Below are positions 2,799 through 64,000 of a stretch of DNA of 64,000 nucleotides, in pieces. Within the stretch, counting starts at the first letter, position 1, and the number at the start of each line of letters is the position of its first letter. The translations under genes were made by a program, and so were the position numbers. The stretch is taken from positions 490,729 to 554,728 of the forward strand of contig CAYVKP010000001.1 in assembly GCA_964452165.1 (NCBI GenBank). Direction: 5' to 3'. The notes beneath the pieces were generated by a model. That model made no database searches and was not told the DNA's origin. It saw only the letters and a program-made list of their open reading frames with translations. The DNA comes from an uncultured Gammaproteobacteria bacterium. Its GTDB lineage: Bacteria > Patescibacteriota > Microgenomatia > Levybacterales > GWA1-39-11.

Positions 2799-2843
2799 CT
2801 AGCGTGTTGATTTTTTCCCTTAATTCCTTATAATTTTATAAAC

Positions 2844-3845: not shown

Positions 3846-3846
3846 A

Positions 3847-6783: not shown

Positions 6784-6821
6784 ATCCTGTTACAATTCCC
6801 ATATTAATAGAAGATAGATTC

Positions 6822-11703: not shown

Positions 11704-11906
11704 GAAGCAATTTATGTAATTATACTGGTTTCAATAAACGTAGACAATATTGATCGGGTTGTATTCTGTCTCATCAGTTCGTGCTTTACAAAGAAAATTA
11801 ACATTGATATAGTTAATAAAATTTTAAATACATTACATTCATCTGCCATATAAGCTTACAGAGCTGCTCGTAATGGAAATCTTAAAACCGGAAATATTCA
11901 CCTAAG

Positions 11907-23077: not shown

Positions 23078-26000
23078 AGAAAATCTTATCCTACGTTGTC
23101 GATAACCTACTTTTTTTTATAACTCTTTTCCTTTTAGTATTCATACCCTTATATCCCAAGTTTCCATTGATAGACATAAAGAATACCTGGGTATATGTTA
23201 GAGTAGAGGATTTTCTCGTTCTCGCGACAGTTTTCATTTGGCTTGTATATTACATTAGAAAGAAAGTTGTACTTAATGCTCCCCTTACCTTGCCGATCAT
23301 TATATTTTGGATAGTGGGCGCCATCGGCACGATTCACGGCGTAGTTCTCGTTTTCCCCGGTATTGCAAATGTTTTTCCCAATGTAGCCTTCCTGAGTTTC
23401 ATGCGGCACATAGAGTATATGTCGTTGTTTTTTATAGCGTATTCCTCGGTCAAGGACAGAAAACAAATCTGGGCTTTTATCGCCGCCATAACAATAACGC
23501 TTTTTGGAGTTGTTGCTTACGGTTTGGGACAAAAATATTTAGGGTTCCCAGCTTACCTTACAATGAACGAGGAATACGCAAAAGGCGTTGCCATAAGGTT
23601 ATCGGATCTTTCTCGTATTCCCTCAACTTTTGCCGGTCATTATGATTTGGCCGCATATCTTGTTTTGATTGTTCCGATTCTTGCGAGCCTTGTTATTGGG
23701 GTGAAGAATATTTTGGGCAAAGCTGTTCTTGCTGTTGCGACAGTTTTGGGCGTTGGCCTACTGTTTATGACTGTTTCAAGAGTCTCTTTTTTTGTTTTGA
23801 TAGTTGCGCTTTTTGCTGTCCTCTATTTTCAAAAGAAAAAACTTATCCTATATTCTCTACCGTTCATAGTAATACTCGGATTTTTATTCGTTAGTTTCAA
23901 GCCCACTTTGCTTGCGCGCTTCAGCAACACAGTTCGTGAAGTAAATGTTCTTGTTGATGGGAAGACGGGGACAGCCGTAGGCCAAGTAAAATTCGTTCCG
24001 TTCTCTTATTTTAAAGATAAAGTAATCAAGCAACAAATTATAGGCGACCGGGATCAACTCGATTCGGCAATGGTAGGCCAAACCCAAAATATACGTGAGA
24101 TAGCAGAATCCACTTCCGCCGCAACGCTCAGGCAAATTTCCCCCGACGCCCAAGTCCCCTTAGTTTTCGCAACGAATGTTTCAACTGGGGAGAATTTGCC
24201 GCAGGGGACAGGCTATATAAATTTGTCTCTATCGCCAGTCGTAAAGCGAGTCGGCAATTTTTTCTATGAGCTTGCCCCGAATATTGCCTCCAGCGCATCA
24301 GCTCAAGTCTTGATTCTCCACGGCGACTTCATAATTAAAAAAGCTTCGGCTTATGATTTGTCTTTTACAACAAGATTCCAGGGGGAATGGCCCCATGCCT
24401 TGCTTGCGTTTGAAAGAAATGTGTTGGTAGGGAGCGGTTATGGCGCAGTGAGTCTTGCCGTAGACAATAATTACCTTAGAATGCTTGGCGAAACAGGGCT
24501 TTTGGGCACCTTATCGTTTCTTGCAATATTCTTGGTTCTCGGGATCTACATAAAGAAAGTTTTACCTGATATTCGCTCCTCTGTTGTCAAGAGCTTTATC
24601 TTGGGTTTTGCGGCGGGTCTTATTGGACTTGCTCTGAACGCAACCCTTATTGATGTTTTTGAGGCAAGCAAAATTGCATTCCTGATGTGGATGTTGATAG
24701 GGGTCGTATTCGGAATTATAAATTCTTATAAAACCCAAGTTAACATAGTGGAGGAATTAAAAGCCGCTTTAACCTCAGATGTTGCAGTCGGTGTTTACCT
24801 TTTGATTGTTGCAGGTGTAATTTTCTCGCGAATGCTCGGAAATTATTTTGTTGCCGATGATTTTACTTGGTTCCGTTGGGCTGCCGACTGTCATAGCTCC
24901 GTTATCTCATTAGGCGGTTGTTCCTCGTTTCTATCTACTATATCTCACTATTTCACAGAGGCTGGTGGATTTTTCTGGCGACCCGGGACAAAAACCTACT
25001 TTCTCTTGATGTATTCAGTCTTCTGGTTAAATCAAACCGTTTATCATGCCGTGTCTATAGTTCTCCATTTTATAGTCGCTTTTCTTTTCTTCCTTCTGGC
25101 AAAAAAGATTCTCAAAAATTCTCTCCTTGCAGCGGGCGCATCGCTATTATTCTTAATTATGAGTGGATACGTCGAAATAGTATTTTGGATTTCTGCAACC
25201 GGTCATTTGTTCAATGCCGTATTCATGCTTCTTGCTCTCATTATGTATATTTCTTGGCGAGAGAAAAAACAGGCTCTGTATCTTGTGATTTCGCTGTTGT
25301 CGACGGTGCTATCTCTCCTTTTCTATGAGACCGGAGTGGTAGTGCCGCTTTTAATACTTGCATATGAGCTGGTATATAATCCTTCCTTCAACATAAAGAG
25401 ATTCTTTAAAAGGGCAGAGTACCTAATCTTATTTGTTCCCAACCTTTTTTATCTTGTCATCAGATTTTTAGCCGGAAGTCATTGGCAAGGCGGAGACTAT
25501 AGTTATAACTTGGTAAAACTCCCCTTCAATCTAATAGGTAATTTGGTAGGTTATGTGGGACTCACATTTATGGGCCCGCTCTTCTTGCCGGCATATGAAA
25601 AAATGCGAACTGTCCTCAGGGGAAATTTACTCGTTGCCGGCGTTATAGCGCTCGTTTTAATTGTGGTGGTAATTTTTGCAGCGCGTGTGTTTATGAAAAC
25701 AATTGAGGGAGAAGATAGAAAAACAGTGTTGTTTGCCGGATTATTCTTTGTTATATCACTACTTCCATTCATAGGTTTTGGCAATATTACGGCTCGCTAC
25801 AGTTATCTTGCATCTTTAGGATTAATAATCATTTTTGTATTTATCTTGAGGAAACTTTATAGATATTTGCTTGCGGAAGGGCGCCCCATCGCAATATCAG
25901 TGGTCGTACTTATTATTGCGGCTTTTTCCCTGCTCCATATTATTGAAGTTCAGCAAATCCATCAGGACTGGAACGGCGCCGGACTTGAAGCAAAAAACTT

Positions 26001-26322
26001 CTTCACCGCGATAGATGATTCCTATTCGGACTATTGGTCAAGTGAGCCGATGCAGCTCCACTTTGTTAACGTGCCCTTAAAAAATGGAGAGGCTTGGGTT
26101 TTTCCGTGGGGAATATCTGATGCAACCTGGTTTGCCTTCAAAAATCCCAAGGCTCAAGTCTATACCGACCCGCAGGTCACTTACGATCTTCAGTCAAAGA
26201 TTTCCCGTAATTTCAAAGTTTTTGAGTTTAACGGAGACGGAAGCGTGACGGAGGTCCAGCCGCCCACTAAGTCCCTCGGTTCGCCAACCCCAACTCCAAC
26301 CTCGTCTCTCAAGCGTTATTAA
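23074..26322 (+). CDS. Fusion membrane protein: O-antigen ligase/Wzy_C-like domain (N-terminal) + GT-C-like polytopic domain (C-terminal), Thr/Pro-rich C-terminal tail
   Basis: The N-terminal half has ~10 TMs and a ~200-aa extracytoplasmic loop. The Wzy_C-type signature GSGYGAVSLAVDNNYLRMLGETGLLG is present. The C-terminal half adds ~10 TMs with FVADDFTWFRW after a TM (GT-C-like DD motif). The tail is SLGSPTPTPTSSLKRY. Confidence 0.5.
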   Translation: MKKILSYVVDNLLFFITLFLLVFIPLYPKFPLIDIKNTWVYVRVEDFLVLATVFIWLVYYIRKKVVLNAPLTLPIIIFWIVGAIGTIHGVVLVFPGIANVFPNVAFLSFMRHIEYMSLFFIAYSSVKDRKQIWAFIAAITITLFGVVAYGLGQKYLGFPAYLTMNEEYAKGVAIRLSDLSRIPSTFAGHYDLAAYLVLIVPILASLVIGVKNILGKAVLAVATVLGVGLLFMTVSRVSFFVLIVALFAVLYFQKKKLILYSLPFIVILGFLFVSFKPTLLARFSNTVREVNVLVDGKTGTAVGQVKFVPFSYFKDKVIKQQIIGDRDQLDSAMVGQTQNIREIAESTSAATLRQISPDAQVPLVFATNVSTGENLPQGTGYINLSLSPVVKRVGNFFYELAPNIASSASAQVLILHGDFIIKKASAYDLSFTTRFQGEWPHALLAFERNVLVGSGYGAVSLAVDNNYLRMLGETGLLGTLSFLAIFLVLGIYIKKVLPDIRSSVVKSFILGFAAGLIGLALNATLIDVFEASKIAFLMWMLIGVVFGIINSYKTQVNIVEELKAALTSDVAVGVYLLIVAGVIFSRMLGNYFVADDFTWFRWAADCHSSVISLGGCSSFLSTISHYFTEAGGFFWRPGTKTYFLLMYSVFWLNQTVYHAVSIVLHFIVAFLFFLLAKKILKNSLLAAGASLLFLIMSGYVEIVFWISATGHLFNAVFMLLALIMYISWREKKQALYLVISLLSTVLSLLFYETGVVVPLLILAYELVYNPSFNIKRFFKRAEYLILFVPNLFYLVIRFLAGSHWQGGDYSYNLVKLPFNLIGNLVGYVGLTFMGPLFLPAYEKMRTVLRGNLLVAGVIALVLIVVVIFAARVFMKTIEGEDRKTVLFAGLFFVISLLPFIGFGNITARYSYLASLGLIIIFVFILRKLYRYLLAEGRPIAISVVVLIIAAFSLLHIIEVQQIHQDWNGAGLEAKNFFTAIDDSYSDYWSSEPMQLHFVNVPLKNGEAWVFPWGISDATWFAFKNPKAQVYTDPQVTYDLQSKISRNFKVFEFNGDGSVTEVQPPTKSLGSPTPTPTSSLKRY

Positions 26323-26358: not shown

Positions 26359-27795
26359 ATGAAGCTAAAGGATTTGGCTATTTTGCTGCTGTTTGTTTTG
26401 GGTTTTATTGTTCGCCTTTATCGCTTTGACAACCCCGTTGCTGACTGGCATGCATTTAGGCAAGGCGACACTAACGCCGTTTCTCAGATTTACGTTCGTG
26501 ATGGAATCAATCTTCTATCTCCTCGCTACTTCGATATATCCAATATTCAATCGGGGAAAGATAATCCCAAAGGATACAGACTTGTAGAATTCCCCATTTA
26601 TAATGCTGTTCAGGCGTTTTTATTCACTGTTTTTAAGACCCTGACGCTTCCCGAGTGGGGCAGAATAATTTCTATAATTGCAACTCTTTCGGGGGCATTC
26701 TTTGTTTACAAACTAGTCAAAAAATACGCAAATGAGATGGCCGGAATTTTCTCAGCTTTTTTCTATTTATTCTTACCTTTTTCAATTTTTTACGGAAGAA
26801 CAATCCTGCCGGATCCCTCTATGGCCGCAGCAATTCTTGGTGGAATATATTTTTTTGACTTGTGGACGTCAAGAAAGAATTTTAAATTTGAAATTTTAGA
26901 TTTTAAATTTTTGTTCGCGATTCTATTTACGGCCACTTCTTTTCTTCTAAAGCCTTACGCCATAATCTTTACTCTTCCAATGATTTATCTTGCCTGGAAC
27001 AAGTTTAAATTCGAAATTATTAAAAAATGGCAACTTTGGTTTTTCGCTATTGTTACCTTGATTCCCATTGTTCTTTGGAGAAAATTTATCGGGCAACACC
27101 CCGAAGGAATTCCGGTCTCTGACTGGCTTTTCAACGGTAACGGCATAAGGTTTAGGCCTTCTTTTTTCCGCTGGATATTTTACGAAAGAATTACCAGGTT
27201 AATACTTGGTTTTTCCGGAGTAGTGTTTCTTTTGGACGGGATTTTATATCTATTCAAAAATAAGAACAAAATGTTTTTCTTATCTTTTGCCGTATCTTCG
27301 CTAATTTATCTGTTCGTTATAGCAACGGGCAACGTACAGCATGACTATTATCAAATTTTAATAATCCCTACAATTTCTATTTTCGCGGGCCTTGGAGCGT
27401 TTGGTTTATTTAAAACGGTTGAGAAGTGGGGCAGGACTGCTGCTATTGGCGTATGTTCGATTCTGATAGTTGTATCGTTATTCTTTTCCTGGAGGCAGGT
27501 TCGTGATTATTTCAATATAAATGATACAAGAATGGTTCATGCAGCAGCTGTTGCGAATAAAATTTTACCTGCCGACGCGACGGTTATTGCACCATATGAT
27601 GGGAGTACAACTTTTTTGAATTTGATACAAAGACGCGGTTGGCCAACTTTTGAGAAGGGTATAGAGGAATTAACCCGTGACGGGGCACAATATTTAGTGA
27701 TAGCCTCACCCACAAAGAATGATTTTTCAGGATTTGGGAAAACTTATCAACACGTTGCAGCTGGGCCTGACTATTTGATCCTTAAATTGAAATGA
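26359..27795 (+). CDS. GT-C-family membrane glycosyltransferase (ArnT/PMT-like)
   Basis: 478 aa with ~11 TMs. RFDNPVADWHAFRQGD lies in the first extracytoplasmic loop, as in ArnT/PMT-type transferases. Confidence 0.45.
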   Translation: MKLKDLAILLLFVLGFIVRLYRFDNPVADWHAFRQGDTNAVSQIYVRDGINLLSPRYFDISNIQSGKDNPKGYRLVEFPIYNAVQAFLFTVFKTLTLPEWGRIISIIATLSGAFFVYKLVKKYANEMAGIFSAFFYLFLPFSIFYGRTILPDPSMAAAILGGIYFFDLWTSRKNFKFEILDFKFLFAILFTATSFLLKPYAIIFTLPMIYLAWNKFKFEIIKKWQLWFFAIVTLIPIVLWRKFIGQHPEGIPVSDWLFNGNGIRFRPSFFRWIFYERITRLILGFSGVVFLLDGILYLFKNKNKMFFLSFAVSSLIYLFVIATGNVQHDYYQILIIPTISIFAGLGAFGLFKTVEKWGRTAAIGVCSILIVVSLFFSWRQVRDYFNINDTRMVHAAAVANKILPADATVIAPYDGSTTFLNLIQRRGWPTFEKGIEELTRDGAQYLVIASPTKNDFSGFGKTYQHVAAGPDYLILKLK

Positions 27796-28958
27796 AAAAG
27801 GTTTTATTCGTGACTTATGATTTTCCATATCCTACCAATACAGGCGGAAAAAACAGGGCATATCATATGCTTAAATACTCGGGCGTCGGTTTCAAAAAAT
27901 ATCTATTTTCATTTGTTCGCCCCGATTTTAAGAGTGAGAATATCAAACACCTTGGGGCAATAGGAGTTGAAGTTTTAAAAACTGTGCCGCGAAGAAAAGT
28001 TACAGACCCCAGGAACGTCATGGGCTTGCTTGGTCAGGGATCAATTTTTAAAACCTTATATTATTCAGAAGACATTCTTGAGGAGTTGATCCGGCTTATT
28101 CGCCAATACGAGATTGATATCGTTCACTTCGAATCCTTTTTTACAGGATTCTATATTTCAAGCGAAATAAAAAACTTGGGTGCGAAACAAATTTACGGAT
28201 CGGAAAACGTAGAATACAAAATGTATAGGGATTATGCGGTTGGCTCTCCTTTTTTCATAAAACCCTTCATGGGCGCGCAAGCTGATAAGATTAAACAAGA
28301 GGAGGAGAGTATGGCAAGAGCCGCTGACGTTTGCGTTGCAGTTTCAGACGCTGAGGCAAGAGAAATTAGTAAAACCGGTGCCGAGTGCGAGATAGTCAGG
28401 AATGGCGTAGATATTGATGAATTCAAACCCAGAAAGCTTGAGAAGGAAGTCAAAAATCTATTGTTTGTAGGGAATTTTACTTATTTTCCAAACGTTGATG
28501 CGATCAGTTTTTTCTACAACGAAGTTTTCAAAAAATTAGAAATGGATTTGAAGCTCACAGTTATTGGGAAAAAAGTGTTTGATTTGCCATTTGCCCGCGA
28601 GGATAGAGTTGAGGCAATCGAATTTGTTAAAAATATTCAAGACGCATATGACAACGCGGATATAATGGTCTCACCGGTTAGGCTAGGCGGTGGTACAAAC
28701 TTCAAAGTTCTTGAAGCGATGGCAGCAGGAGTGCCCGTTATTGCGCTGCAGGATAGGATAGTTGGTCTTGATGTTAAAGATGGCGTTAACATAATGGTTG
28801 CCAAAGATGGTCCGGACTTTGTCAGAATAATAGATAGACTTGCGGGAGATCACGTGCTCCGTACGAAAATATCAAATGCCGCCAGAAAACTTGTTACTCA
28901 CGAGTATTCGTGGAAGATAATAGGAAATAATCTTGCAACCATTTGGGAAAACCTATGA
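27792..28958 (+). CDS. Glycosyltransferase group 1 (GT4)
   Basis: LLFVGNFTYFPNVDAISFF...VSPVRLGGGTNFKVLEAMAAGVPVIA. Confidence 0.7.
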   Translation: MKKVLFVTYDFPYPTNTGGKNRAYHMLKYSGVGFKKYLFSFVRPDFKSENIKHLGAIGVEVLKTVPRRKVTDPRNVMGLLGQGSIFKTLYYSEDILEELIRLIRQYEIDIVHFESFFTGFYISSEIKNLGAKQIYGSENVEYKMYRDYAVGSPFFIKPFMGAQADKIKQEEESMARAADVCVAVSDAEAREISKTGAECEIVRNGVDIDEFKPRKLEKEVKNLLFVGNFTYFPNVDAISFFYNEVFKKLEMDLKLTVIGKKVFDLPFAREDRVEAIEFVKNIQDAYDNADIMVSPVRLGGGTNFKVLEAMAAGVPVIALQDRIVGLDVKDGVNIMVAKDGPDFVRIIDRLAGDHVLRTKISNAARKLVTHEYSWKIIGNNLATIWENL

Positions 28959-36453: not shown

Positions 36454-38673
36454 ATGGCAGTAGAAACTGATGCAAGAATAATAATTGATCGACTTCTTCG
36501 TGAAGCAGGTTGGGATATTGAGAATAAACAAATAGTTTCAACAGAAGAGCCGGCAGCAGACGGGAGAGCAGACTACCTGTTAAAAGATCAGCATGGGAGG
36601 CCGCTTGCAGTAATCGAAGCAAAGAGATTTTCTATAGAGCCAAACCGAGCCCAAGAACAAGCAAAAGATTATGCTATTTCTATATCTGCGCCTTATGTTT
36701 TTTTATCAAATGGAGAAGTAATCTATTTCTGGGATTATAAAAATCACGCTGCAAGGTTAGTAGATACTTTTTATTCAAGAGAAGACCTGGAAAGAAAATA
36801 CGCTCTTTCTAAAAACCTAACACCACTAACCGAAGTATCAATACCTTCGAGCTTTCTATATTTAAACGATGAAATTACCGTTAGGCCCTACCAGGTTGAT
36901 GCCATAAAGGCTGTTGATAAAGCAATCGAATCTGGAAAAAGAAGAATGCTAATAGAGATGGCTACTGGAACAGGTAAGACTCTAACGGTGGCAATTATAA
37001 TGAAGAGACTTTTTGAGTCGGGTTTAGTTCAACGAGTTTTATTTTTGGTCGACAGAAAGCAGCTTGCAGAGCAAACAAAAGACGTTTTTACAGAGTACTT
37101 AAGAGAAACTCCATCGAAAGTTTGGTATGGTGGAAAGCCGAAAGAGCTAGGTCAGATCGTTATTGGGACGCTTCCAACGATTGCATCTCAGCTTGAGCGT
37201 TTTGGTCCAGGGCACTTTGATTTGGTTGTGACGGATGAGTGTCACAGGTCAATTTATAATATTTACCGTGAGTTACTCAATCATTTTGATGCTTTGCATA
37301 TTGGCATGACTGCAACTCCAAATCTTGGTCAGTACGAATTCGTAAATGAAAAGGAAAAAAGGTTAGTGAGAAATACCTACGAATTTTATAAGTGCTGGAA
37401 TCATGCTACTAAAATCGGCGAACCAACTTTTGCTTATGGAATCGTTGAGGGAATAAAAGACGGTTTCCTCGCAAATTACCAAATTTATTTGGCTAAGTCG
37501 AGAATTACATCTGAGGGTGTGACATATGAAGGAGTTGACTATAAGCCCTCAGAGCTTGAAAGGACTATCACGATTGAGTCCCGTAATAAGCTGATGGTTC
37601 AGGAGTTTGCAGAAATGGAGAAGCAGCGGGGTGGAGATCATCTTAGGAAGACAATTCTTTTCGCCGTTACAAAAAACCATGCCGCACAGCTTAAAAGATT
37701 TTTTGATGAAGAATTCCCAGAATATACGGGTGATTATGCAAAGATCATTACTTCCGATACTCCTAATCCCGGACAAATCCTGAAGGATTTTGAAAAACAG
37801 CAATTTCCGGTATGCCTTATTTCTGTCGGAATGCTTGATACCGGAATTGATGCGCCAAACGTTGAAAACCTTGTCATGATGCGCCCAACTGTCTCAGCTG
37901 TCCTTTATCAGCAAATGCGCGGACGCGGAACTCGTAAAGATCCCAAAATTGGAAAAGAGTCATTTCTTATTTATGATTTTGTAGGAAATGCAGAGAAGTT
38001 TAATGATCCCATGCTTGAAAACGCAGTTCCCGGGGAAAGCCATCTGTCCGTTGGATTATTTGATGCCATAGAGAAAGAAGAAGAAAAGAGAAAGAAAGAA
38101 TTCGTTGTAGTTAAAGAGCATGAACTGACTGATGAAATGCAGACAAGGCAAATGATTCATGTTGGTCCAGAAGGTATGGCGATCGACAGGCAGAATTATA
38201 AAGAAAAATTTAAAGAGACTGTATCAAGTATGGAAGATGATGAAACAATTCAAAAAATACTCACAGATAAGGTATTGGATCAGGGAGAGATTAATGAATT
38301 AGCGAGAAAACTAAATCAACCAGAGGATTACTTTAATGAAGATAACCTTAAAGACGCTTACGGAGAGCCTTCGGGTTCATTGGTGGACTTTATAAAGGCT
38401 GCGTTCGGTAAATACAGGTTTCCAACTAAAAGAGAGCGTGTAAATAAAAACTTTGATTCCTGGTTGAGACAAAAGAATTTTAATATCGACCAAATTTCAT
38501 TACTATCACAACTTAAAAACAGGTTTGTAGCAGGAGATATTGAGATAACTGCCGAGGACTTTACAAAGCCTCCGCTTAGAGAACAAGGAGGCATACAGAA
38601 GGCCGTTTCTTTATTTGGGGAGCAGGGATTGAGACAGACACTGGAAGAGCTTAATGAAACAGTACTGAATTAA
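36454..38673 (+). CDS. hsdR: Type I restriction enzyme R subunit (HsdR-like; N-terminal PD-(D/E)xK nuclease + SF2 helicase), compact 739 aa
   Basis: HsdR_N-type start IIIDRLLREAGWD...DYLL...PLAVIEAKR (D..EAK). Helicase motifs: I MATGTGKT, II DECHRS, VI QMRGRGTR. Confidence 0.7.
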   Translation: MAVETDARIIIDRLLREAGWDIENKQIVSTEEPAADGRADYLLKDQHGRPLAVIEAKRFSIEPNRAQEQAKDYAISISAPYVFLSNGEVIYFWDYKNHAARLVDTFYSREDLERKYALSKNLTPLTEVSIPSSFLYLNDEITVRPYQVDAIKAVDKAIESGKRRMLIEMATGTGKTLTVAIIMKRLFESGLVQRVLFLVDRKQLAEQTKDVFTEYLRETPSKVWYGGKPKELGQIVIGTLPTIASQLERFGPGHFDLVVTDECHRSIYNIYRELLNHFDALHIGMTATPNLGQYEFVNEKEKRLVRNTYEFYKCWNHATKIGEPTFAYGIVEGIKDGFLANYQIYLAKSRITSEGVTYEGVDYKPSELERTITIESRNKLMVQEFAEMEKQRGGDHLRKTILFAVTKNHAAQLKRFFDEEFPEYTGDYAKIITSDTPNPGQILKDFEKQQFPVCLISVGMLDTGIDAPNVENLVMMRPTVSAVLYQQMRGRGTRKDPKIGKESFLIYDFVGNAEKFNDPMLENAVPGESHLSVGLFDAIEKEEEKRKKEFVVVKEHELTDEMQTRQMIHVGPEGMAIDRQNYKEKFKETVSSMEDDETIQKILTDKVLDQGEINELARKLNQPEDYFNEDNLKDAYGEPSGSLVDFIKAAFGKYRFPTKRERVNKNFDSWLRQKNFNIDQISLLSQLKNRFVAGDIEITAEDFTKPPLREQGGIQKAVSLFGEQGLRQTLEELNETVLN

Positions 38674-55227: not shown

Positions 55228-56841
55228 ATGGCGGGAATTTTATTTAACGTAACATCATTTTTATTTTTTCTGTCCCTTGCTAAGAGCTCAATTCTTTGGG
55301 TCAAAGCGTGGGAAGAAAACAATTTCACTTTCCGGAGATTTTTCATCTATTTAAAGGAAAATAGACGTGGAAGATCTCTCATGGTGGGTGTAGAAAGTAT
55401 TCTAAGGTGGATTGTCATTTTGGTTTATGGTGTAACCCTTTTTTCAAATAACTATGACAATATATACCACCTCTTAGTTTTTGGTTTTTACGTCTTTGTG
55501 ACTTTGGGGTTAGCAAAAAAGATTTACGATAAAGACATAAGCCTTCCAAGCTTTACTCCGGCAAATATAGCAATTATAGCGCTCGTACTGCTTCTTGAAT
55601 TTGTGTTCTACATTTTTTCTCCTCTTGATAAATTTCTGTGGTTCATGATTCTTGAGAAGCTACTTTCCGTATTCATATTAATTCTTGTTTTGTCGCTCGG
55701 CGTATTTTTTGATTTCAGCACTGATTTGGTTATAAACCAAGCCATCAAAAAAATTCAAAAGCACAAGAGACTTTTAACTATAGCCGTCGTTGGAAGTTAC
55801 GGGAGGGGTTCAACAAAAGAGTTTATCGCAAGAGTTCTGTCGCAAAGATACAATGTTTTGGAAACAAAAACGTCTTTTGACAACGCATCAGGAATTGCAA
55901 AAACGATTCTAAGTGGTTTAACTGCGAAGAAGCAAATTTTTATTGCTGAAATGGATGATTACAAAAAAGGTGACATAGGCGAAATGAGCGCTATCATTAA
56001 GCCCTCGATTGCGGTAGTTTGTGGAATTAATGAACAAAAAATGTCGGTCCTGGGATCAATTGATAATATCGTCTCTTCAAAATACGAATTGATAGAGGCA
56101 TTATCCAAAGATGCAGTTGCACTCTTCAATGGTAATAGCGAATATTCGGTTGATCTATACAATAAAACAAACGTCAAAAAATTTATCTACTCAGTTGAAA
56201 AGAAAGATAGCACGTCAGCCATAAGAGCAAGCAATATTAAGGAATCTAAGTTCGATGTGTCTTTTGATGTATATGTTTTGGGTAAGAAATATAAATTATC
56301 CGGAATAAAACTCTTGGGAGGGTATAACATAGAAAATCTTCTACCGGCAATTTTAATTGGAACATATGTAAGTATAGATTTTTCTCAGATTAAAAAAGCA
56401 CTTCTAGATATTAAGCCGCTCCCCGGAGCTATGAATCCAAGCAAAATTAGCAATGGGACCGTAGTCATAGATGATACCTACAACGCCAACATCAACTCAG
56501 TTTTAAGAGCCGTATCTTACACCTCAATTTATAAAGGTAAAAAGGTTATGGTTCTTGAACCTCTTCTTGGCCTCGGTAATTTTGCCGCTCGTGAGCATGA
56601 AGCCCTAGGACAGGAGATAGGAAAAGTGTGCGATTTTCTGTTTTTGACCAATGACAATTACTACAAGGGCATCTTGCAGGGAATCGCAGCAAGTAAATCT
56701 AAGTGTAGGGTGTATCGTGTGCCTCCGGCAAAAATTATCAATTTTATAAACACGCAATGCAAGGCGGAAGATGTAGTTGTATTTGAAGGACCCGGTGCCA
56801 AAAACAGTCTATCCTTCATTCGGAAAGACCCCATTTACTAG
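55228..56841 (+). CDS. murF: MurF-like Mur ligase with an N-terminal ~180-aa multi-TM domain
   Basis: DDTYNANINSVL matches the MurF DDSYNAN signature. The ATP-site region is TIAVVGSYGRGSTKEF, atypical versus GSSGKTS. The N-terminus carries four hydrophobic helices in place of the usual soluble domain 1. Confidence 0.5.
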   Translation: MAGILFNVTSFLFFLSLAKSSILWVKAWEENNFTFRRFFIYLKENRRGRSLMVGVESILRWIVILVYGVTLFSNNYDNIYHLLVFGFYVFVTLGLAKKIYDKDISLPSFTPANIAIIALVLLLEFVFYIFSPLDKFLWFMILEKLLSVFILILVLSLGVFFDFSTDLVINQAIKKIQKHKRLLTIAVVGSYGRGSTKEFIARVLSQRYNVLETKTSFDNASGIAKTILSGLTAKKQIFIAEMDDYKKGDIGEMSAIIKPSIAVVCGINEQKMSVLGSIDNIVSSKYELIEALSKDAVALFNGNSEYSVDLYNKTNVKKFIYSVEKKDSTSAIRASNIKESKFDVSFDVYVLGKKYKLSGIKLLGGYNIENLLPAILIGTYVSIDFSQIKKALLDIKPLPGAMNPSKISNGTVVIDDTYNANINSVLRAVSYTSIYKGKKVMVLEPLLGLGNFAAREHEALGQEIGKVCDFLFLTNDNYYKGILQGIAASKSKCRVYRVPPAKIINFINTQCKAEDVVVFEGPGAKNSLSFIRKDPIY

Positions 56842-56866
56842 CTTCCTTTAAAACGCACCAGCCAAG

Positions 56867-56901
56867 TGTTATAATCAATTTGTATCCCCACGAAAGTGGG
56901 G
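56867..56901 (+). promoter_or_regulatory. Internal promoter (TGTTATAAT extended -10) plus a 6-bp GC stem / GAAA-loop hairpin in the mraY leader
   Basis: TGTTATAAT at 56867..56875. CCCCAC-GAAA-GTGGGG at 56886..56901 ends 8 nt before the mraY ATG, and the G-rich arm could double as the SD. Confidence 0.35.
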
Positions 56902-56908
56902 TTAAATT

Positions 56909-57913
56909 ATGGATCAGGTATTTGGATTCTCTATTTTGTCTCTCGTAATAACGGCTATTTTACTCGTGCCCTTTATAGATTTTTTGTATAAAATAAAGCT
57001 CCAGAAAACTGTTCATCACCTTGATATCTTCAACAAGGGCGTGAGAACTTTTGATAAGTTATCTTCTTGGAAAGTCGGGACTCCATTTGGTGGAGGTCTT
57101 TTGATCGTTTTCGTAGTAACAGTAATGACTTTGTGGGCCTATGGTCTTTTCAGGGTGGAGCTGAAATTTTGGGAGCTTTTTGCTCTTCTCTTCACCTTCG
57201 TAGGCTTCGGTTTACTGGGGTTTTATGATGACATCAAGAAGATATTCAAGAAGAATACCGGCTTTTTCGGCTTAAAACCACTTCACAAGCTTGCGATCCA
57301 ATGGATACTTGCTCTTATCGTGGGGCTGGTTATGTATTATCAGTTGGGCTACTCATTTGTATACGTGCACTTTATAGGGCAGGTCACTCTAGGCGTAGGA
57401 TATGTTTTGTTCGCGGCTTTTGTTATCGTCTCTTTTGCTAACGCAGTCAATGTTTCAGACGGAATGGACGGTCTATCAACAGGGCTCTTGATTATCTGCC
57501 TTGTTGCTTTTCTTGCAATGGCCGGATCAAATCTCGACAGTTTTGTGTCTCTATTCATAGCAACGCTCTTGGGTAGTGTAACAGCATTTTTATATTTCAA
57601 TATTTATAAAGCTAGGCTTTGGCTAGGCGACGTTGGTGCCTTATCTCTGGGAGCAGTTTTGGCGGTAATCGGACTCTTGACCGGTAAACCAATATCGGTT
57701 GCAATAATTGGTGGCGTTTTTGTTATAGAAATAGGGTCTTCTCTTGTGCAGATTTTGTCGAGAAAATTCTTAAATAAAAAAATCTTGCCGATTGCGCCGG
57801 CTCACTTTATTTTTCTCAAAAGAGGCTGGGAAGAACCAAAAGTTGTAATGCGCGCCTGGCTGCTCGGAGTAGTATTTGCTATTATAGGGCTATATATTGC
57901 CTTCCTCAGGTAG
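56909..57913 (+). CDS. mraY: Phospho-N-acetylmuramoyl-pentapeptide transferase
   Basis: NAVNVSDGMDGLSTGL and VGALSLGAVLA are conserved MraY motifs. Ten TMs. Confidence 0.9.
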   Translation: MDQVFGFSILSLVITAILLVPFIDFLYKIKLQKTVHHLDIFNKGVRTFDKLSSWKVGTPFGGGLLIVFVVTVMTLWAYGLFRVELKFWELFALLFTFVGFGLLGFYDDIKKIFKKNTGFFGLKPLHKLAIQWILALIVGLVMYYQLGYSFVYVHFIGQVTLGVGYVLFAAFVIVSFANAVNVSDGMDGLSTGLLIICLVAFLAMAGSNLDSFVSLFIATLLGSVTAFLYFNIYKARLWLGDVGALSLGAVLAVIGLLTGKPISVAIIGGVFVIEIGSSLVQILSRKFLNKKILPIAPAHFIFLKRGWEEPKVVMRAWLLGVVFAIIGLYIAFLR

Positions 57914-57943
57914 ATTCGTTAAACTTATTTTCATACTCCAATT

Positions 57944-59017
57944 ATGAGTAGAACGGGTGTTTTTATATTCCTCACGTCTATTATCCTTTCACTTATCGGA
58001 ATTTTTATACTTTATGAGAGCTCTACATATGCTGCTCTTCTTTCAATCGGTGATAAATATTACTTTGTCCGTAATCAGGCGGTGTGGTTTTTGATTGGTA
58101 TTGCGGTCTGTTTTCTAATTTCAAGAATTAACTACAGAAAATATTACAAACTTGCGCTGCCCATTCTGGTTTTCTCGCTCCTTCTTCTTGTCCTCGTTTT
58201 TTTCCCGGGGATCGGCGTATCTCTTAAAGGTGCGCATCGCTGGCTAAATTTTGGAGCTTTTATTGTTCAGCCGTCCGAAATCCTTAAAATAACGTTGACC
58301 ATTTATTTGGCGGCATGGTTATCGATAAAAGAGAAGAGTAAATTCCTGGCTTTCATGCTGCTTATTGCTCTTTCCGTAGTTCTGGTAATCCTTGAGCCGG
58401 ATATGGGTACGGCTTTTATAATTGCCGCTTCAGCAACTACAGTCTATTTTTTATCCGGTGCACGATTTACAGATATGATACTCATCTTTTTGATCTTAGC
58501 AGCCGGTCTTATCGGGCTAATCTTTTTTGCTCCGTACAGACTCGCAAGGCTCACGGCTTACCAAAATTTTGATTCAAAAGATTTATCTACAACCTCTTAT
58601 CATGTAAAGCAGATTTTAATAGCAGTCGGCTCAGGCGGCCTGACAGGCGTTGGATTTGGGAATTCCGTGCAAAAATATGGCTACTTACCTGAAAACACGA
58701 CCGACTCAATCTTCGCAATTTTTGCGGAAGAGTCAGGTTTTATCGGTACTACAGCGTTGATCGGAGTCTTTCTGCTTGAGGTTTTTCTTGGATTTACAAT
58801 AGCCGCCCGTGCACCCGATCCGTTTGGTAAGCTTTTGGCCTGCGGCATCATAACTTTTATATGTGTTCAGACTTTTGTTAATATAGCATCTCAGGCGGTT
58901 TTGATTCCTTTGACAGGTGTCCCTCTACCCTTTGTTTCATACGGTGGATCCTCGCTTATTATTAATCTCTCCTCCATTGGAATCTTAATGAATATCTCGA
59001 GAAAGGAGAAGAAATGA
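57944..59017 (+). CDS. ftsW: SEDS-family peptidoglycan glycosyltransferase FtsW/RodA
   Basis: GAHRWLNFGAFIVQPSEILKI, PDMGTA and GVPLPFVSYGGSSL are SEDS signatures. Confidence 0.85.
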   Translation: MSRTGVFIFLTSIILSLIGIFILYESSTYAALLSIGDKYYFVRNQAVWFLIGIAVCFLISRINYRKYYKLALPILVFSLLLLVLVFFPGIGVSLKGAHRWLNFGAFIVQPSEILKITLTIYLAAWLSIKEKSKFLAFMLLIALSVVLVILEPDMGTAFIIAASATTVYFLSGARFTDMILIFLILAAGLIGLIFFAPYRLARLTAYQNFDSKDLSTTSYHVKQILIAVGSGGLTGVGFGNSVQKYGYLPENTTDSIFAIFAEESGFIGTTALIGVFLLEVFLGFTIAARAPDPFGKLLACGIITFICVQTFVNIASQAVLIPLTGVPLPFVSYGGSSLIINLSSIGILMNISRKEKK

Positions 59018-60126
59018 GGGTACTTATAACCGGCGGTCATTTCTCGCCCGCCTACAGTATTATCACCGAACTTAAGAAAAGGGGGCATGAGATTACGGTT
59101 GCAGGAAGAAGATATCCTTTTGAAGACGACAAAAGTGAATCCTTGGAATACCAAATTTGCCAGAGAGAAAATCTACCCTTTTATGAAATTAAGACAGGAA
59201 GATTTCAAAGAAAATTTACCGCCTACACAATAAGTTCTTTATTAAAAACACCGCCCGGCATTCTCAACTCGGTAAATCTACTTAGAAAGGCGCGTCCTGA
59301 CGTAGTGATGACGTTTGGAGGATATATAGCATTTCCAATAGGGATTGCCGCAAAAATTCTGGGGATCCCAATCGTTTTACACGAACAAACTCAAGGGGCC
59401 GGATTGAGCAGTAAATTCCTTGGGAGTTTAGCAAAAAAAATCTGTATATCTTTTGCAAGCTCCGCAAGTCTCTTCGCCAAAGATAAAACTGTTTTTACTG
59501 GTAATCCAATACGTAATGAAGTATTTAGGATTGAAAAAAAGATGGACATTCCTGCCGGAAAAGTAATCTATATAACCGGAGGAAGCACGGGATCGCACTT
59601 TATAAATGAGCGAATCTTGGAGATTGCAGACACTCTTCTTGATGAATATGTTTTGATCCATCAGACAGGTGAAAGTCTTAAGTTTAATGATTTTGAAAAG
59701 CTCTCAGAGATGAAAGACTCTTTGCCTTCGGAAAAAAAGAAAAGATACATTTTGAAGAAATTCGTCTATCCTGAAGAAGTAGGATTTGTATTTTCAAAGG
59801 CGAATTTGGTGTTGGCTCGGGCAGGGGCGAACACGATTTTCGAGTTGATAGCAACGCGCAAGATGAGTCTCTTGATACCGCTTCCCCATGGTCAAAACAA
59901 CGAACAACTTACTAACGCAAAACTTGTCAAAAAGCTTGGAATAGGTGAATATTTGGAGCAAAATGAGGCGAGTGGGGAATCGATAATTGCTAAAATTAAC
60001 CAAATGTTTGAGAGTATGAAAGACTATGTTGAAAACCTAAAATCAGCCCAGGATTTTGTAGTTGTCGACGCGGCGGCAAGAATTGTCGATGAGGTAGAGA
60101 GAGTTTATGGTAAGAAGAGCAGCTAA
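59014..60126 (+). CDS. murG: UDP-N-acetylglucosamine--N-acetylmuramyl-(pentapeptide) pyrophosphoryl-undecaprenol GlcNAc transferase
   Basis: MRVLITGGHFSPAYSIITELKKRGHEI..., HEQTQGAGLSSKFL and ARAGANTIFEL match the MurG consensus. Confidence 0.85.
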   Translation: MRVLITGGHFSPAYSIITELKKRGHEITVAGRRYPFEDDKSESLEYQICQRENLPFYEIKTGRFQRKFTAYTISSLLKTPPGILNSVNLLRKARPDVVMTFGGYIAFPIGIAAKILGIPIVLHEQTQGAGLSSKFLGSLAKKICISFASSASLFAKDKTVFTGNPIRNEVFRIEKKMDIPAGKVIYITGGSTGSHFINERILEIADTLLDEYVLIHQTGESLKFNDFEKLSEMKDSLPSEKKKRYILKKFVYPEEVGFVFSKANLVLARAGANTIFELIATRKMSLLIPLPHGQNNEQLTNAKLVKKLGIGEYLEQNEASGESIIAKINQMFESMKDYVENLKSAQDFVVVDAAARIVDEVERVYGKKSS

Positions 60127-60523
60127 AAGAAGAGCGAGACAAGTTTTTATAGTGGCACTTGCTGCCGCTTTTTTTTGTGTAGCGCTCGTTTTTACCATTT
60201 TTGCCCTTAGATCTATTGTTCCGCTGCTTAGGACTTCGTCCAAGAATCAGACAATGATAAAGCCGGCAGTCGCAATGACTGAGGCATCGGACTTACAAAA
60301 AAAACTTGGAGAGAATAATATAATGTTGGATTCATTCTCAGCCACAACAAGTTCTGGCATGATTGCAAAAGTTAAGGACGGTCCCACTGTATTTTTCTCC
60401 CAGGATTTACCGGCCGATTGGCAGGTGTCCTCTTTACAATTGATCCTCACGCGGCTTACAATAGATAATAAGAAGCCGAAAGTTATAGACTTACGGCAAG
60501 CTCGCCCTATTGTAAAATTTTAG
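60107..60523 (+). CDS. Short bitopic membrane protein at the ftsQ position (FtsQ/DivIB-like, no full POTRA domain evident)
   Basis: 138 aa: basic N-terminus, one TM (VFIVALAAAFFCVALVFTIFAL), ~95-aa extracytoplasmic part. It sits where ftsQ lies in dcw clusters. Confidence 0.35.
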   Translation: MVRRAAKRRARQVFIVALAAAFFCVALVFTIFALRSIVPLLRTSSKNQTMIKPAVAMTEASDLQKKLGENNIMLDSFSATTSSGMIAKVKDGPTVFFSQDLPADWQVSSLQLILTRLTIDNKKPKVIDLRQARPIVKF

Positions 60524-60545
60524 GGCGTATAATACTATAAAAACT

Positions 60546-61838
60546 ATGCGTGATTCGCAGATTAACATAGGTGTTGACATAGGCTCCTCAAAAATAGCCA
60601 CAGTAATAGGCCAGCTTCAAGAAGAAAACGTCAATATTTTAGGAGTTTCAGAAGTTCCTTCCCGTGGAATTAGGCGCGGTCAGATTATCGATATAGAAGA
60701 AGCAGCCGTATCAATAAATGGTGCTCTTGATGCGGCAGAGCGCATGGCGGGCCATTCTGTAGACCGGGTGTTTGTATCCTTGTCAGGTGTCCACATTATG
60801 AGCCAAAATTCAAAGGGAATAGTTGCTATTTCAACTCCCTCAGGCGAGATAGGTGAGACAGACGTCCAGAGGGTTCTTGAGGCGGCAGGGGCAGTATCAA
60901 CTCCGGCTACAACAACCATACTACACGTGCTTCCAAAGACGTTTACCGTAGATGGCGAGGGTGGAATCAAGGATCCCGTTGGAATGACAGGCGTAAGACT
61001 CGAGGTCGATACCCACATAATTACGGCAAATTCCGTATCGGTCAAGAATATTGAGCGAGTTTTGGAGCAAGAGGCGGGAGTTGGAGTTGCATCTGTTGTT
61101 TTTTCGGGTCTTGCGTCTTCTCTGGCAGTTCTTTCAGATACGGAACGCGAGCTCGGCGTAATTCTGGTTGATATTGGAGCTGGGATTACCAATGTTTGTA
61201 TTTACGTTGACGGAGCCCTATCTTACTCAACCGTTATTCCAATTGGAGCCCGTCATATAACGAATGATTTGGCAATAGGACTGCGAATTTCTCTCGAATC
61301 GGCAGAAAAAATAAAAATGTACCTATCCAAAAAATTCGGAAAGAAAAAAGATAGGGAAGCGGCAGCCGAGGCGGAGGAAAATCCGGACGAGGTAGATCTT
61401 TCATCTCTTCACTTGACTGAAGAACTTAGAAAAGTTTCCCAAAAGACTTTGGTTGATGGAATTATAAAGCCTCGTCTCAATGAGTTATTTACAATGGTAG
61501 GAATTGAGCTTAAAAAAAGCGGGTTTGCAACCCAAACTCCTGCTGGAATAGTTGTAACTGGTGGGGGAGCAAGAACGGCGGGAGTAGAGGAGGCAGCAAA
61601 AAGAATGCTTTCAATGCCTGTCCGAGTTGGAATTCCTACAAATGTTACGGGTCTTATCGATGATGTTGAGAATCCTTCTTTTGCAACAAGCGTGGGTCTC
61701 CTGATGTATGCACGTAATTTCAGAACAACACAATCTGAATCATTTTTTGAAGGAGTCTTAAAGCCGCTAAACGGCGGTTTTGGAAAAGGGATTTTTGGTC
61801 CAGTTGCGCGTCTTATTAAAACGTTTTTACCTAAATGA
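60546..61838 (+). CDS. ftsA: Cell division protein FtsA (actin-like ATPase)
   Basis: INIGVDIGSSKIATVIG, ...DIGAGITNVCIY, ...VVTGGGA. Confidence 0.85.
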   Translation: MRDSQINIGVDIGSSKIATVIGQLQEENVNILGVSEVPSRGIRRGQIIDIEEAAVSINGALDAAERMAGHSVDRVFVSLSGVHIMSQNSKGIVAISTPSGEIGETDVQRVLEAAGAVSTPATTTILHVLPKTFTVDGEGGIKDPVGMTGVRLEVDTHIITANSVSVKNIERVLEQEAGVGVASVVFSGLASSLAVLSDTERELGVILVDIGAGITNVCIYVDGALSYSTVIPIGARHITNDLAIGLRISLESAEKIKMYLSKKFGKKKDREAAAEAEENPDEVDLSSLHLTEELRKVSQKTLVDGIIKPRLNELFTMVGIELKKSGFATQTPAGIVVTGGGARTAGVEEAAKRMLSMPVRVGIPTNVTGLIDDVENPSFATSVGLLMYARNFRTTQSESFFEGVLKPLNGGFGKGIFGPVARLIKTFLPK

Positions 61839-63592
61839 TTTCGAACTTATTTAAATTTATTCGCAAGCTTAAGGCTTGGGAAATATTATTTTACCTCGGT
61901 CTTTTTGCTGTCTTTATAGCAAATGCCTTCCACGAGTCCTATCCTGATGAATTCGACAATATTTTAGGCGGTTGGAACATGCTTCATGGTAGATTCCTCT
62001 ATTCCGGCTTCTTTACTCATCACGGCCCCGTTCCCTACATGCTCGCAGCAGTACTTGAGCTTTTCTCTTGGCAATCATTTGTCCGTTTTCGCGTAGTCTA
62101 TGAAATAGCGCTTGTCCTATTTAATATTTTTGTTTACAAATTCTACAAGGAGCAGATAGGGGAGAAAGTTACAAGATTTTATCCAATCTTTTTGATTTTG
62201 CTCGGAATCGGCTCGACATATTTCTGGTTGCACATGCTTCTTGCCGACAACCTTGCGGCCATCGTTCTGACTGCAGTTTACGGGCTTATAATTCTAAAGA
62301 GAATCTACGGCGTTCTATTTGACAGAAGAGATCTCATTTTTATATCTGTTTTATCCGCGCTGGGTCTCTATTCTTCACTTACTTTCACATACGTATACGG
62401 AATAATTTTCATAACAACTTTATACATATATTTTGCCCAAGCTAAATTCTCGTTCAAGAATATTAGAAAGGGGTTTATCGAGCCGCTTATAATACTGCTT
62501 ATTCCGCACGTAATTTTTGGAATATACCTCTTAGTCACTTGGAGCTTGCCCGATTACCTCTACCAAAATTTTGTTTTCAATTCTAAATACTACATTTACA
62601 ATTACCCGCGTCCCGAGGGCGCTACAATCAACCCAATTCGTTACGCGGTCTTAATTGCTCACGAGTTCTTCAATAGCTTCTATACAATTATCACCGGTCT
62701 TCAAAGCCTCAACCTTACGTTCCCAATGAACAATCTCATGGCATTTGCAGACCTTGCACTTCTAATCTACGCATTTTTGAGTAAAAGAGTTAAACTTGGA
62801 CTTTTTATTCTTGCACTTCTAATTTATTCGAATGTTCGCAGTCACCCGCTTTCAAAAGAAACAGATTATCAGGCGGCAGTTTACATCTTTTTCTCCCTCC
62901 TCAATTCCTTCATAGTAATCCAAGTTCTTGCTGAAAAACTAAGAGAAAATATTGCCTACACAAGCAAAATTATCTATACAATCTTGTTCTCAATTGCAGT
63001 TATTCTTTCATTGGCAGGAGGACTTTTTGTTATTCAAAAATTCGGAGATAAATACTACGCAAAATATATGGGTAATGCGCCGCTTATCTACGATAGACCT
63101 GAGATTGCACCCATTCTTAATAAGATTACGGACAAGAATGATATTGCCTGGATTGGTCCATTTGAATTTGAAGAGCTATTCTACTTGAATCGCGTTGGTC
63201 CATCAAAATATCAAATATTAATTCCCGGAATGGGTAAATCTCCTAAGATTCAAGCAGATATAATTGCTGCTTACAAAAAAAATCCGCCCGCGGTACTTTA
63301 TTTTGACCCCAACTTCTTTATTCTAGGATCTCAGACAAAATATTATTCCGGATTTTTCCTTGACTACCTCAATCAAAATTACTACACACTTCTTCCTTAT
63401 CGCGAAGGAGATACGGTTTACAGATCTTCTACTCCGATTCACGACGGTGAGAAGTTGGACCTTGAGACCAAACTTTATATAAGAAAAGACAAGATGAAAG
63501 AAGTGCTCGTAAAGCTTGTTTCAAATGGCTACATTCACACTAAAAATGAGCCGCCTGTCGAGCCAACAAAGACCCCTGCAAAGAAAAAATAA
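61835..63592 (+). CDS. Polytopic membrane protein, GT-C-like, inserted between ftsA and ftsZ
   Basis: 585 aa with ~12 TMs in the first ~400 aa. ESYPDEFDNILGGWN follows TM1 as an acidic-motif loop. A soluble C-terminal domain follows. It overlaps ftsA by 4 nt. Confidence 0.4.
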   Translation: MISNLFKFIRKLKAWEILFYLGLFAVFIANAFHESYPDEFDNILGGWNMLHGRFLYSGFFTHHGPVPYMLAAVLELFSWQSFVRFRVVYEIALVLFNIFVYKFYKEQIGEKVTRFYPIFLILLGIGSTYFWLHMLLADNLAAIVLTAVYGLIILKRIYGVLFDRRDLIFISVLSALGLYSSLTFTYVYGIIFITTLYIYFAQAKFSFKNIRKGFIEPLIILLIPHVIFGIYLLVTWSLPDYLYQNFVFNSKYYIYNYPRPEGATINPIRYAVLIAHEFFNSFYTIITGLQSLNLTFPMNNLMAFADLALLIYAFLSKRVKLGLFILALLIYSNVRSHPLSKETDYQAAVYIFFSLLNSFIVIQVLAEKLRENIAYTSKIIYTILFSIAVILSLAGGLFVIQKFGDKYYAKYMGNAPLIYDRPEIAPILNKITDKNDIAWIGPFEFEELFYLNRVGPSKYQILIPGMGKSPKIQADIIAAYKKNPPAVLYFDPNFFILGSQTKYYSGFFLDYLNQNYYTLLPYREGDTVYRSSTPIHDGEKLDLETKLYIRKDKMKEVLVKLVSNGYIHTKNEPPVEPTKTPAKKK

Positions 63593-63665
63593 AACCCTCA
63601 TCATCTAGGTTGCAATGATCTCATTTTTGTGTTAGGATTGGCGTACGTTTTAGACGTACTATCAG

Positions 63666-64000
63666 ATGTTAATAAAGCCCCAAACAACTTCTTTTGCAAA
63701 AATTCGCGTGATAGGTATTGGCGGTGGAGGAGGAAACGCAATCAACTCCATGATTGTGGACAATCAGATTAAAGGCGTTGAATTTATGGCGATAAACACC
63801 GATGCCCAAGCGCTTCTTGTTAACCAAGCAAATGTAAAAGTTCAAATCGGTGAAAATCTTACTCGTGGACTTGGATCCGGAGGAAATCCTGACGTTGGAA
63901 AAAATGCGGCTGAAGAATCTCGGGAGAAAATTAAGGAGATGCTTGAAGGTACTGATATGGTTTTCTTGACCGCCGGAATGGGTGGCGGGACCGGGACAGG
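63666..64000 (+). CDS. ftsZ: Cell division GTPase FtsZ, N-terminal part (3' end outside the window)
   Basis: Manual translation gives [30 protein letters not shown]...[11 protein letters not shown]...[13 protein letters not shown]...[22 protein letters not shown] is the tubulin/FtsZ GTP-binding signature. It is absent from the ORF track because no stop lies in the window. Confidence 0.9.

Follow-up and report, generated by a model that had tools for sequence, protein, structure and literature searches.

Multi-component transmembrane glycosylation systems include GtrA-GtrB-Gtr*, CsbB-GtcA-YfhO and GtlA-GtcA-GtlB (PMC8035078, PMC11127046). The glycosyltransferase (GT) arm of the GT-C type in such systems carries a modified DxD motif in an extracellular loop and has 8–13 transmembrane (TM) helices, and GtrA is a small membrane protein associated with the flipping of polyprenyl-phosphate sugars (PMC8035078). 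The subject of this study is a gene, here called X, in a 64-kb stretch of contig CAYVKP010000001.1 from a Levybacterium. The full stretch is referred to as the window. X is inserted between the division genes ftsA and ftsZ. The original prediction was that X is a GT-C-like polytopic membrane protein that serves as a divisome-coupled transferase or as a membrane tether for FtsA and FtsZ. The GT-C part of this proposal was supported by Foldseek comparisons of a confident model, a family-wide motif, fusions to GtrA, the PMT_2 score of one family member (P0347) and arrays of PMT_2, YfhO and GT2 genes. The link to division was not. The reading that we favour, with a probability of about 0.75, is that X is a GT-C-fold glycosyltransferase placed between ftsA and ftsZ by a lineage-specific rearrangement.

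In presumed function X is closest to the GT-C arm of the multi-component systems, and in structure it is closest to the ArnT/PMT_2-type enzymes. As in the multi-component systems, there are about 11 TM helices and an acidic loop, distant relatives carry a GtrA fusion downstream of a GT2 gene, and close relatives adjoin GT2 and YfhO genes. Unlike those systems, the window has no GtrA and no GT2 gene adjoining X. With the PMT_2/ArnT-type GT-C enzymes (PF13231; CAZy GT39/GT83-like) X shares a polytopic membrane domain with a soluble domain C-terminal to it, and X homologues sit among PMT_2 genes. However, X and 44 of 46 close relatives have no PMT_2 match even at E≤1. The acidic motif of X lies in the first outer loop, as it does in ArnT, and Foldseek aligned X with Cupriavidus metallidurans ArnT (PDB 5EZM/5F15) over 544–562 columns with a TM-score of 0.43–0.48. 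Sequence identity to ArnT is 12–13%, and the motif in X is DExDN followed by an HH pair. The bacterial group is generally assumed to lack an outer membrane; if so, the acceptor of X cannot be lipid A, unlike that of ArnT. Genes near ftsA and ftsZ in the division and cell wall (dcw) cluster are ftsQ, ftsA and ftsZ, with sepF and ylmE downstream in Gram-positives. X is like the dcw genes in its position inside the cluster and its probable co-transcription with ftsA. It is unlike them in that the position is not kept in any relative examined, and in having no sequence or fold relation to known divisome proteins. No paper was found on the X family or on ftsA-ftsZ insertions in Patescibacteria.

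Family, fold and conserved residues of X

Homologues of X are numerous. At least 410 were identified at E≤1e-3 in one collection. The best 120 of these are full-length and 44–53% identical, and the few that are named are hypothetical proteins, mostly from Levybacteria. A profile of the X family searched against 1.84 billion cluster representatives gave 1206 matches at E≤1e-3 and 595 at E≤1e-10. Judged by these numbers, X is a real gene. Members occur in Levybacteria, Gottesmanbacteria, Woesebacteria and Daviesbacteria, and there are more remote relatives outside these groups. Its ~1200 cluster representatives at 50% identity go unrecognised by Pfam and NCBIfam and are ‘hypothetical’ in every source. 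Sequence-search matches of X to a penton protein and to TM segments of the GABA-A receptor were rejected as noise (E≥0.08).

An AlphaFold2 model of X was built on a 46-sequence alignment. The model has a predicted local distance difference test score (pLDDT) of 92.2 and a predicted template modelling score (pTM) of 0.91, with no segment below 50. It consists of a helical membrane domain to about residue 411 and an α/β domain at residues 425–571. DSSP applied to the model, hydropathy and the positive-inside rule gave about 11 TM helices plus several juxtamembrane helices, so that the earlier count of about 12 was roughly right. Lysine- and arginine-rich segments (1–13, 101–117, 154–166, 203–213 and 316–319) alternate with acidic conserved loops, and by the positive-inside rule the N-terminus (K7, R10, K11, K13) would be cytoplasmic. 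The gene and the parts of the protein concerned are as follows.

61835–63592, plus strand: X, open reading frame (ORF) for a predicted GT-C-fold membrane protein of an uncurated family; ATG start, 585 amino acids (aa)
61874–61930, plus strand: TM1, residues 14–32 by hydropathy; DSSP helix 14–29
63107–63547, plus strand: C-terminal α/β domain, residues 425–571; DSSP strands and helices, pLDDT >90; predicted to be extracytoplasmic

The model was compared with the PDB using Foldseek. The top 15 matches were all GT-C enzymes or the catalytic STT3 subunit of oligosaccharyltransferase complexes, namely ALG12, AftA, ArnT, Pmt1, Pmt2, Pmt4 and STT3, with probabilities of 0.99–1.00 in 14 cases and 0.87 in one. 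ArnT and Pmt are folds that the original prediction had singled out for this comparison. The best E-values were 3.4e-4 (ALG12), 3.9e-4 (AftA) and 1.1e-3 (ArnT). Alignments to AftA and ArnT spanned 544–610 columns and included the C-terminal α/β domain. Transporters and other non-GT-C folds ranked below, with probabilities of 0.11 or less. X shows three features of the GT-C superfamily: a polytopic protein with 8–13 TM helices and a predicted cytoplasmic N-terminus, an acidic motif in the first outer loop and similarity to solved GT-C structures.

Conservation was counted over 113 full-length near and far representatives of the family, down to E ~1e-35. The positions that stand out are listed first.

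61946–61960, plus strand: D38-E39-F40-D41-N42, acidic motif in the first extracytoplasmic loop after TM1; putative catalytic or metal-binding site
62018–62023, plus strand: H62-H63 pair in loop 1; H63 in 112/113, H62 in 98/113
62246–62248, plus strand: D138, second acidic position (D/E) in the loop before TM4; acidic in 110/113
62837–62839, plus strand: R335, candidate lipid-phosphate ligand; R in 102/113

The DEFDN loop had been noticed in the original prediction, and it does follow a hydrophobic helix (residues 14–32). The motif is invariant in alignment A1. Among the 113 representatives D38 is kept in 111, E39 in 101 (D in 7 others), D41 in 91 (E in 10 others) and N42 in 99. Position 86 is R or K in 110/113, N249 is found in 112/113, and Y253 is also conserved. 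Based on the positive-inside rule applied to the model helices, all of these residues are predicted to lie on the outer face. In GT-C enzymes the acidic catalytic loop and the ligands of the lipid phosphate lie on the outer face.

Distant members of the family provide a link to GtrA. An N-terminal Pfam GtrA_DPMS_TM domain was identified in 27 of the 150 best-scoring distant representatives. One such relative, a 723-aa protein fused to N-terminal GtrA, is found at 5216–8172 of locus L140. The fusion begins 1 nucleotide (nt) inside the stop codon of a 261-aa GT2 gene, and a gene for UDP-galactopyranose mutase lies 1.6 kb upstream. The gene content of this locus suggests a galactofuranose-adding system.

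A second link is with PMT_2. X does not match Pfam PMT_2 (PF13231) at E≤1 and falls short of the gathering threshold of 26.1 bits, and 2/46 close relatives match it weakly (best E=0.0043). Only the distant relative P0347, which matches the X family profile with E=1.8e-45, passes the PMT_2 gathering score (35.8 versus 26.1 bits). Its Pfam match and an hhalign comparison map the PMT_2 region to X residues ~70–235, and in the latter the PMT_2 region and the acidic motif are in the same register as in X. The hhalign result was used for register only and not as proof. Because X does not pass the PMT_2 model it is not filed there, and we regard it as belonging to a related, diverged family.

X is very probably a membrane glycosyltransferase of an unnamed family for which there is no curated model. 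It would use a lipid-phosphate-linked sugar donor and transfer the sugar at the membrane's outer face. Taken together, the DExDN...HH signature, GtrA fusions and GT-C/GT2 neighbourhood make a usable family definition for annotators, and they point to extensive surface glycosylation in Microgenomates.

Genomic setting of X and of the ftsA-ftsZ junction

The usual home of the family was examined in 54 species-representative genomes of Levybacteria, Gottesmanbacteria, Woesebacteria, Daviesbacteria and unclassified Patescibacteria. The genes ftsA, ftsZ, murG, ftsW, mraY and murF were found within 6 kb of an X homologue in 0/54 loci. The 96 immediate flanking genes included 35 PMT_2, 15 PMT, 5 YfhO, 3 GT87 and 6 GT2 genes, along with 11 from S-adenosylmethionine (SAM)-methyltransferase families. 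This neighbourhood is typical of extracytoplasmic glycosylation machinery. The three closest homologues (50–53% identity) and one in the complete Levybacteria chromosome CP066685 lie in glycosyltransferase arrays. One array reads YfhO, GT2, GT2, GT87, methyltransferase, PMT_2, X, then four PMT_2 genes. In CAZIAP010000001.1, from a relative, an intact ftsA-ftsZ pair at ~274–276 kb and an X homologue at ~336 kb are about 60 kb apart.

In the window the setting is different, and the following elements border X.

60546–61838, plus strand: ftsA, 430 aa; Pfam FtsA 5e-36, SHS2_FTSA 9e-29
61835–61838, plus strand: ATGA start/stop overlap of ftsA and X, read directly from the sequence
63610–63638, plus strand: ftsZ promoter-like element; TTGCAA at 63610–15, 17-nt spacer, TG at 63630–31, TAGGAT at 63633–38
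63666–64000, plus strand: 5′ part of ftsZ, which runs off the window; ATG read directly

The window FtsA is 80–83% identical to that of other Levybacteria. Its gene ends in ...CCT AAA TGA and the ATG of X occupies 61835–61837, so that 4 nt are common to both ORFs. The sequence therefore upholds the 585-aa ORF and 4-nt overlap that had been predicted. The predicted close spacing to ftsZ also holds, although the distance from the X stop to the ftsZ ATG is 73 nt and not 74. In an alignment of loci the ftsA terminus of relatives reads AAATAA and contains no ATG. Upstream of X is a dcw block in the order MurF-like ligase, mraY, ftsW, murG, FtsQ-sized protein and ftsA, where mraY, ftsW and murG were assigned through homology to Pfam-annotated genes of relatives. 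Logan contig L057, an independent assembly of the same organism, has the same order: a 3′ part of ftsA truncated by the contig edge, then an identical X and a complete ftsZ. Its FtsZ is 369 aa with Tubulin and FtsZ_C domains. The exact X protein is known from this Logan contig and one NCBI contig only.

A scan for consensus promoters and terminators found nothing convincing within X or 3′ of it. No promoter could be recognised for X, and its start lies within the ATGA shared with ftsA, which probably makes X the final cistron of the upstream mraY-ftsW-murG-ftsA transcript. The overlap suggests that X is co-transcribed with ftsA, to which it is probably also translationally coupled.

The junction was then surveyed in relatives. 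Collection of ftsA loci whose FtsA is 50–83% identical to that of the window gave 83 loci, 67 of which were informative. X lay between ftsA and ftsZ in 0/67. The synteny survey called for in the original prediction thus found the ftsA-X-ftsZ arrangement in this genome only among the relatives examined. ftsZ directly follows ftsA in 56/67 loci, with a median spacer of 63 nt (range 38–200). A small insert of 339–650 nt was found in 5/67, and the remaining 6/67 had either a large insert or at least 1.5 kb devoid of ftsZ. The inserts in these 11 loci, about one informative locus in six, are unrelated to one another and to X. Inserts were delimited as follows.

L138, 9339–16580: five genes over 7.4 kb, in the closest relative (FtsA 83%, FtsZ 95% identical)
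L058, 2821–6325: insert
L059, 3264–5838: two repeat proteins
L092, 7304–11810: two polysaccharide deacetylases and a beta-lactamase-family protein
L113, 7577–8704: integrase
L115, 7387–13119: RadC and a type I restriction system

Cargo at the Levybacteria junction also includes large unknown proteins, a DUF2000 protein and an HAD hydrolase. Another close relative, L139 (FtsA 81%), has plain adjacent ftsA and ftsZ.

A conserved element may account for this tolerance. The pattern TTGCA-N17-TGnTAGGAT is invariant in 8/8 aligned Levybacteria loci (the window, L060, L061, L067, L070, L071, L138 and L139), whether ftsA, X or another insert lies upstream. It stands ~25–30 nt upstream of the ftsZ start and, in the window, 17 nt past the X stop, where 63610–63615 would be the −35 box and 63633–63638 the −10 box. 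The consensus scan missed the element because only 8/12 positions match; the alignment revealed it. We believe that it is probably ftsZ's own promoter. Such a conserved promoter would allow insertion after the ftsA stop without silencing ftsZ, and is probably why unrelated cargo is present in about one sixth of the informative loci. The adjacency of ftsA and ftsZ is not inviolable in Levybacteria, and location at this junction does not by itself imply a role in division. Function is not to be read from adjacency in a single genome.

Explanations for X at the junction

A working model can be proposed. A cytoplasmic GT2 enzyme would load a sugar on polyprenyl phosphate, and the lipid-linked sugar would be flipped across the membrane. 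X would then pass the sugar to an acceptor at the outer surface by means of the D38-E39-x-D41 loop, D138, H62/H63 and R86/R335. A wall glycopolymer or a surface protein are candidate acceptors. A lineage-specific rearrangement would have placed X in the permissive ftsA-ftsZ site, where it became the last dcw cistron through the ATGA overlap. What the data show directly is the ORF, its similarity of fold, the conserved motif, the GtrA fusions, the genomic settings and the lack of conservation of the position; the catalytic activity, the polyprenyl-phosphate-sugar donor, the topology and the co-transcription in this model are inferred.

Several observations weigh against the favoured reading. 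X matches nothing in Pfam, NCBIfam or the PDB sequences. Foldseek E-values are marginal (~1e-3 to 1e-4) and TM-scores are modest, at 0.23–0.48 over the top 15. For this reason X is read as a member of the GT-C superfamily and not of a particular family within it. The hhalign comparison of the X family with its PMT_2 neighbours is weak (E=5e-4, probability 31%). GtrA is absent from the ORFs of the window, and the only GT2 among 23 window ORFs scanned against Pfam is at 261–1112, 60 kb away. Finally, tight ATGA coupling to ftsA is what would be expected if co-expression with the divisome mattered.

X could instead be recent foreign or mobile cargo, transferred horizontally into an insertion hot spot and not integrated in host physiology. 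The junction does take mobile DNA in relatives, as seen with the integrase of L113 and the RadC and type I restriction genes of L115. The GC skew of X at third codon positions (GC3 skew, −0.29) is the most negative in the window, and its codon-usage distance is ~1 standard deviation above the mean. However, its GC content (0.38) and GC3 (0.40) are inside the range of the window genes, and the skew and codon distance are at least partly due to a composition rich in Tyr, Phe, Asn and Ile. The best homologues are all from Levybacteria. Identities of 45–53% to these are as expected for a fast-evolving membrane protein, compared with ~80% for FtsA. That the ATGA junction is exact and the promoter 17 nt downstream intact speaks for an arrangement that is old and streamlined, and no mobility gene was found among ORFs of at least 60 aa at 56000–64000, where no repeat search was made. 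We think recent foreign cargo unlikely and prefer the view that a resident member of the family was relocated. The original prediction had named a non-GT-C fold combined with a strain-specific insertion as the outcome that would overturn it; the insertion does appear to be specific to this genome, but the fold is GT-C-like.

It is still less probable that X is a divisome-coupled enzyme, recruited by FtsA/FtsZ to modify septal wall polymers or proteins, its location reflecting its function. The ATGA overlap, with no terminator or strong promoter detected between ftsA and X, suggests stoichiometric co-expression with the dcw genes. The insert of L092 also encodes wall-related enzymes, and the dcw enzymes MraY, MurG and FtsW use the undecaprenyl-phosphate lipid pool, which X would share. 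Against this, the arrangement is seen in 0/54 homologue loci, 0/67 ftsA loci and 0/3 of the closest homologues. What else is inserted at the junction, such as an integrase or a restriction system, is unrelated, and the conserved context of the X family is GT-C/GT2 arrays. A role as a membrane tether for FtsA/FtsZ fares no better, as the position is not conserved and FtsA retains its own C-terminal amphipathic tail, which leaves no need for a tether. Because X is found at the junction in this genome only, nothing links it to cell division, and the understanding of division in these bacteria is unchanged by X. We give equally little credence to a narrower version, in which X was captured into the dcw operon of this Levybacterium only and translationally coupled to FtsA, so that extracytoplasmic glycosylation of a wall polymer or surface protein would be timed and dosed with septum synthesis. 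If true, X would illustrate in nature how a glycan-modifying enzyme can be drawn into the division programme, and might compete with MraY, MurG and FtsW for the polyprenyl-phosphate pool.

X might have a GT-C-like fold but no transferase activity, and serve as a scaffold or tether, as does PIG-U in the glycosylphosphatidylinositol (GPI) transamidase. Such non-enzymes exist and are among the weaker Foldseek matches (7w72_U, probability 0.82), and X matches no curated GT family. However, across more than 100 diverged representatives the acidic, His and Arg residues predicted to face outward are near-invariant, which is typical of an active site, and GtrA fusion and GT2 adjacency point to a lipid-linked sugar pathway. 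We consider a non-catalytic role quite improbable. Least probable of all is that the ftsA-X-ftsZ order is a metagenome assembly artefact. In its favour, the DNA comes from a metagenome-assembled genome, and one NCBI and one Logan contig are the only ones with the protein. However, the two assemblies agree on the order, composition is continuous across the region, and neither junction shows a seam: the coding sequences overlap by 4 nt on the ftsA side, and on the ftsZ side the promoter conserved in the lineage lies 17 nt from X.

Other genes of the window

The window contains no second X and no member of the PMT_2 family type that neighbours X homologues. Pfam identified one other PMT_2 protein, at 26359–27795. 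A glycan region at 0.3–29 kb holds GT2, GT4, epimerase and deacetylase genes and this PMT_2 gene, together with several large polytopic proteins that have no Pfam match. With such a region there are plenty of candidate partners for X in the organism.

The GT2, deacetylase, epimerase and GT4 genes form a cluster at 261–5905. Just downstream, at 7430–15199 (plus strand), is a duplicated two-gene module. The first genes encode proteins of 757 and 769 aa (~10 TM helices each, 35% identical) and the second genes proteins of 341 and 328 aa (5 TM helices, 28% identical). None of the four has a Pfam match, and they may be further unrecognised membrane glycosyltransferases. Two divergently oriented genes encode polytopic proteins, at 15838–17700 (minus strand, 620 aa) and 17722–19773 (plus strand, 683 aa), the latter with a sub-threshold GT-C_AftD match only (E=0.03). 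A 1082-aa protein with ~22 predicted TM helices is encoded at 23074–26322 (plus strand) and has no Pfam match even at E≤1. The PMT_2 gene comes next, and then a GT4 gene at 27792–28958.

In the MurF-like ligase of the dcw block (55228–56841, plus strand) the usual N-terminal Mur ligase domain is replaced by ~170 residues that form ~5 hydrophobic helices, and Mur_ligase_M begins at residue 187. At the corresponding place loci L138, L139 and L142 encode proteins of 536–541 aa in which Pfam identifies the same pair of Mur-ligase domains, so this architecture is probably common to relatives. In the ftsQ position (60107–60523, plus strand) a 138-aa protein with one TM helix overlaps the end of murG by 20 nt and has no Pfam POTRA or FtsQ match. 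Its counterparts in relatives are 140–145 aa and 45–53% identical. Elsewhere in the window, 36454–38673 (plus strand) encodes the R subunit of a type I restriction enzyme with ResIII, EcoEI_R_C and HSDR_N domains.

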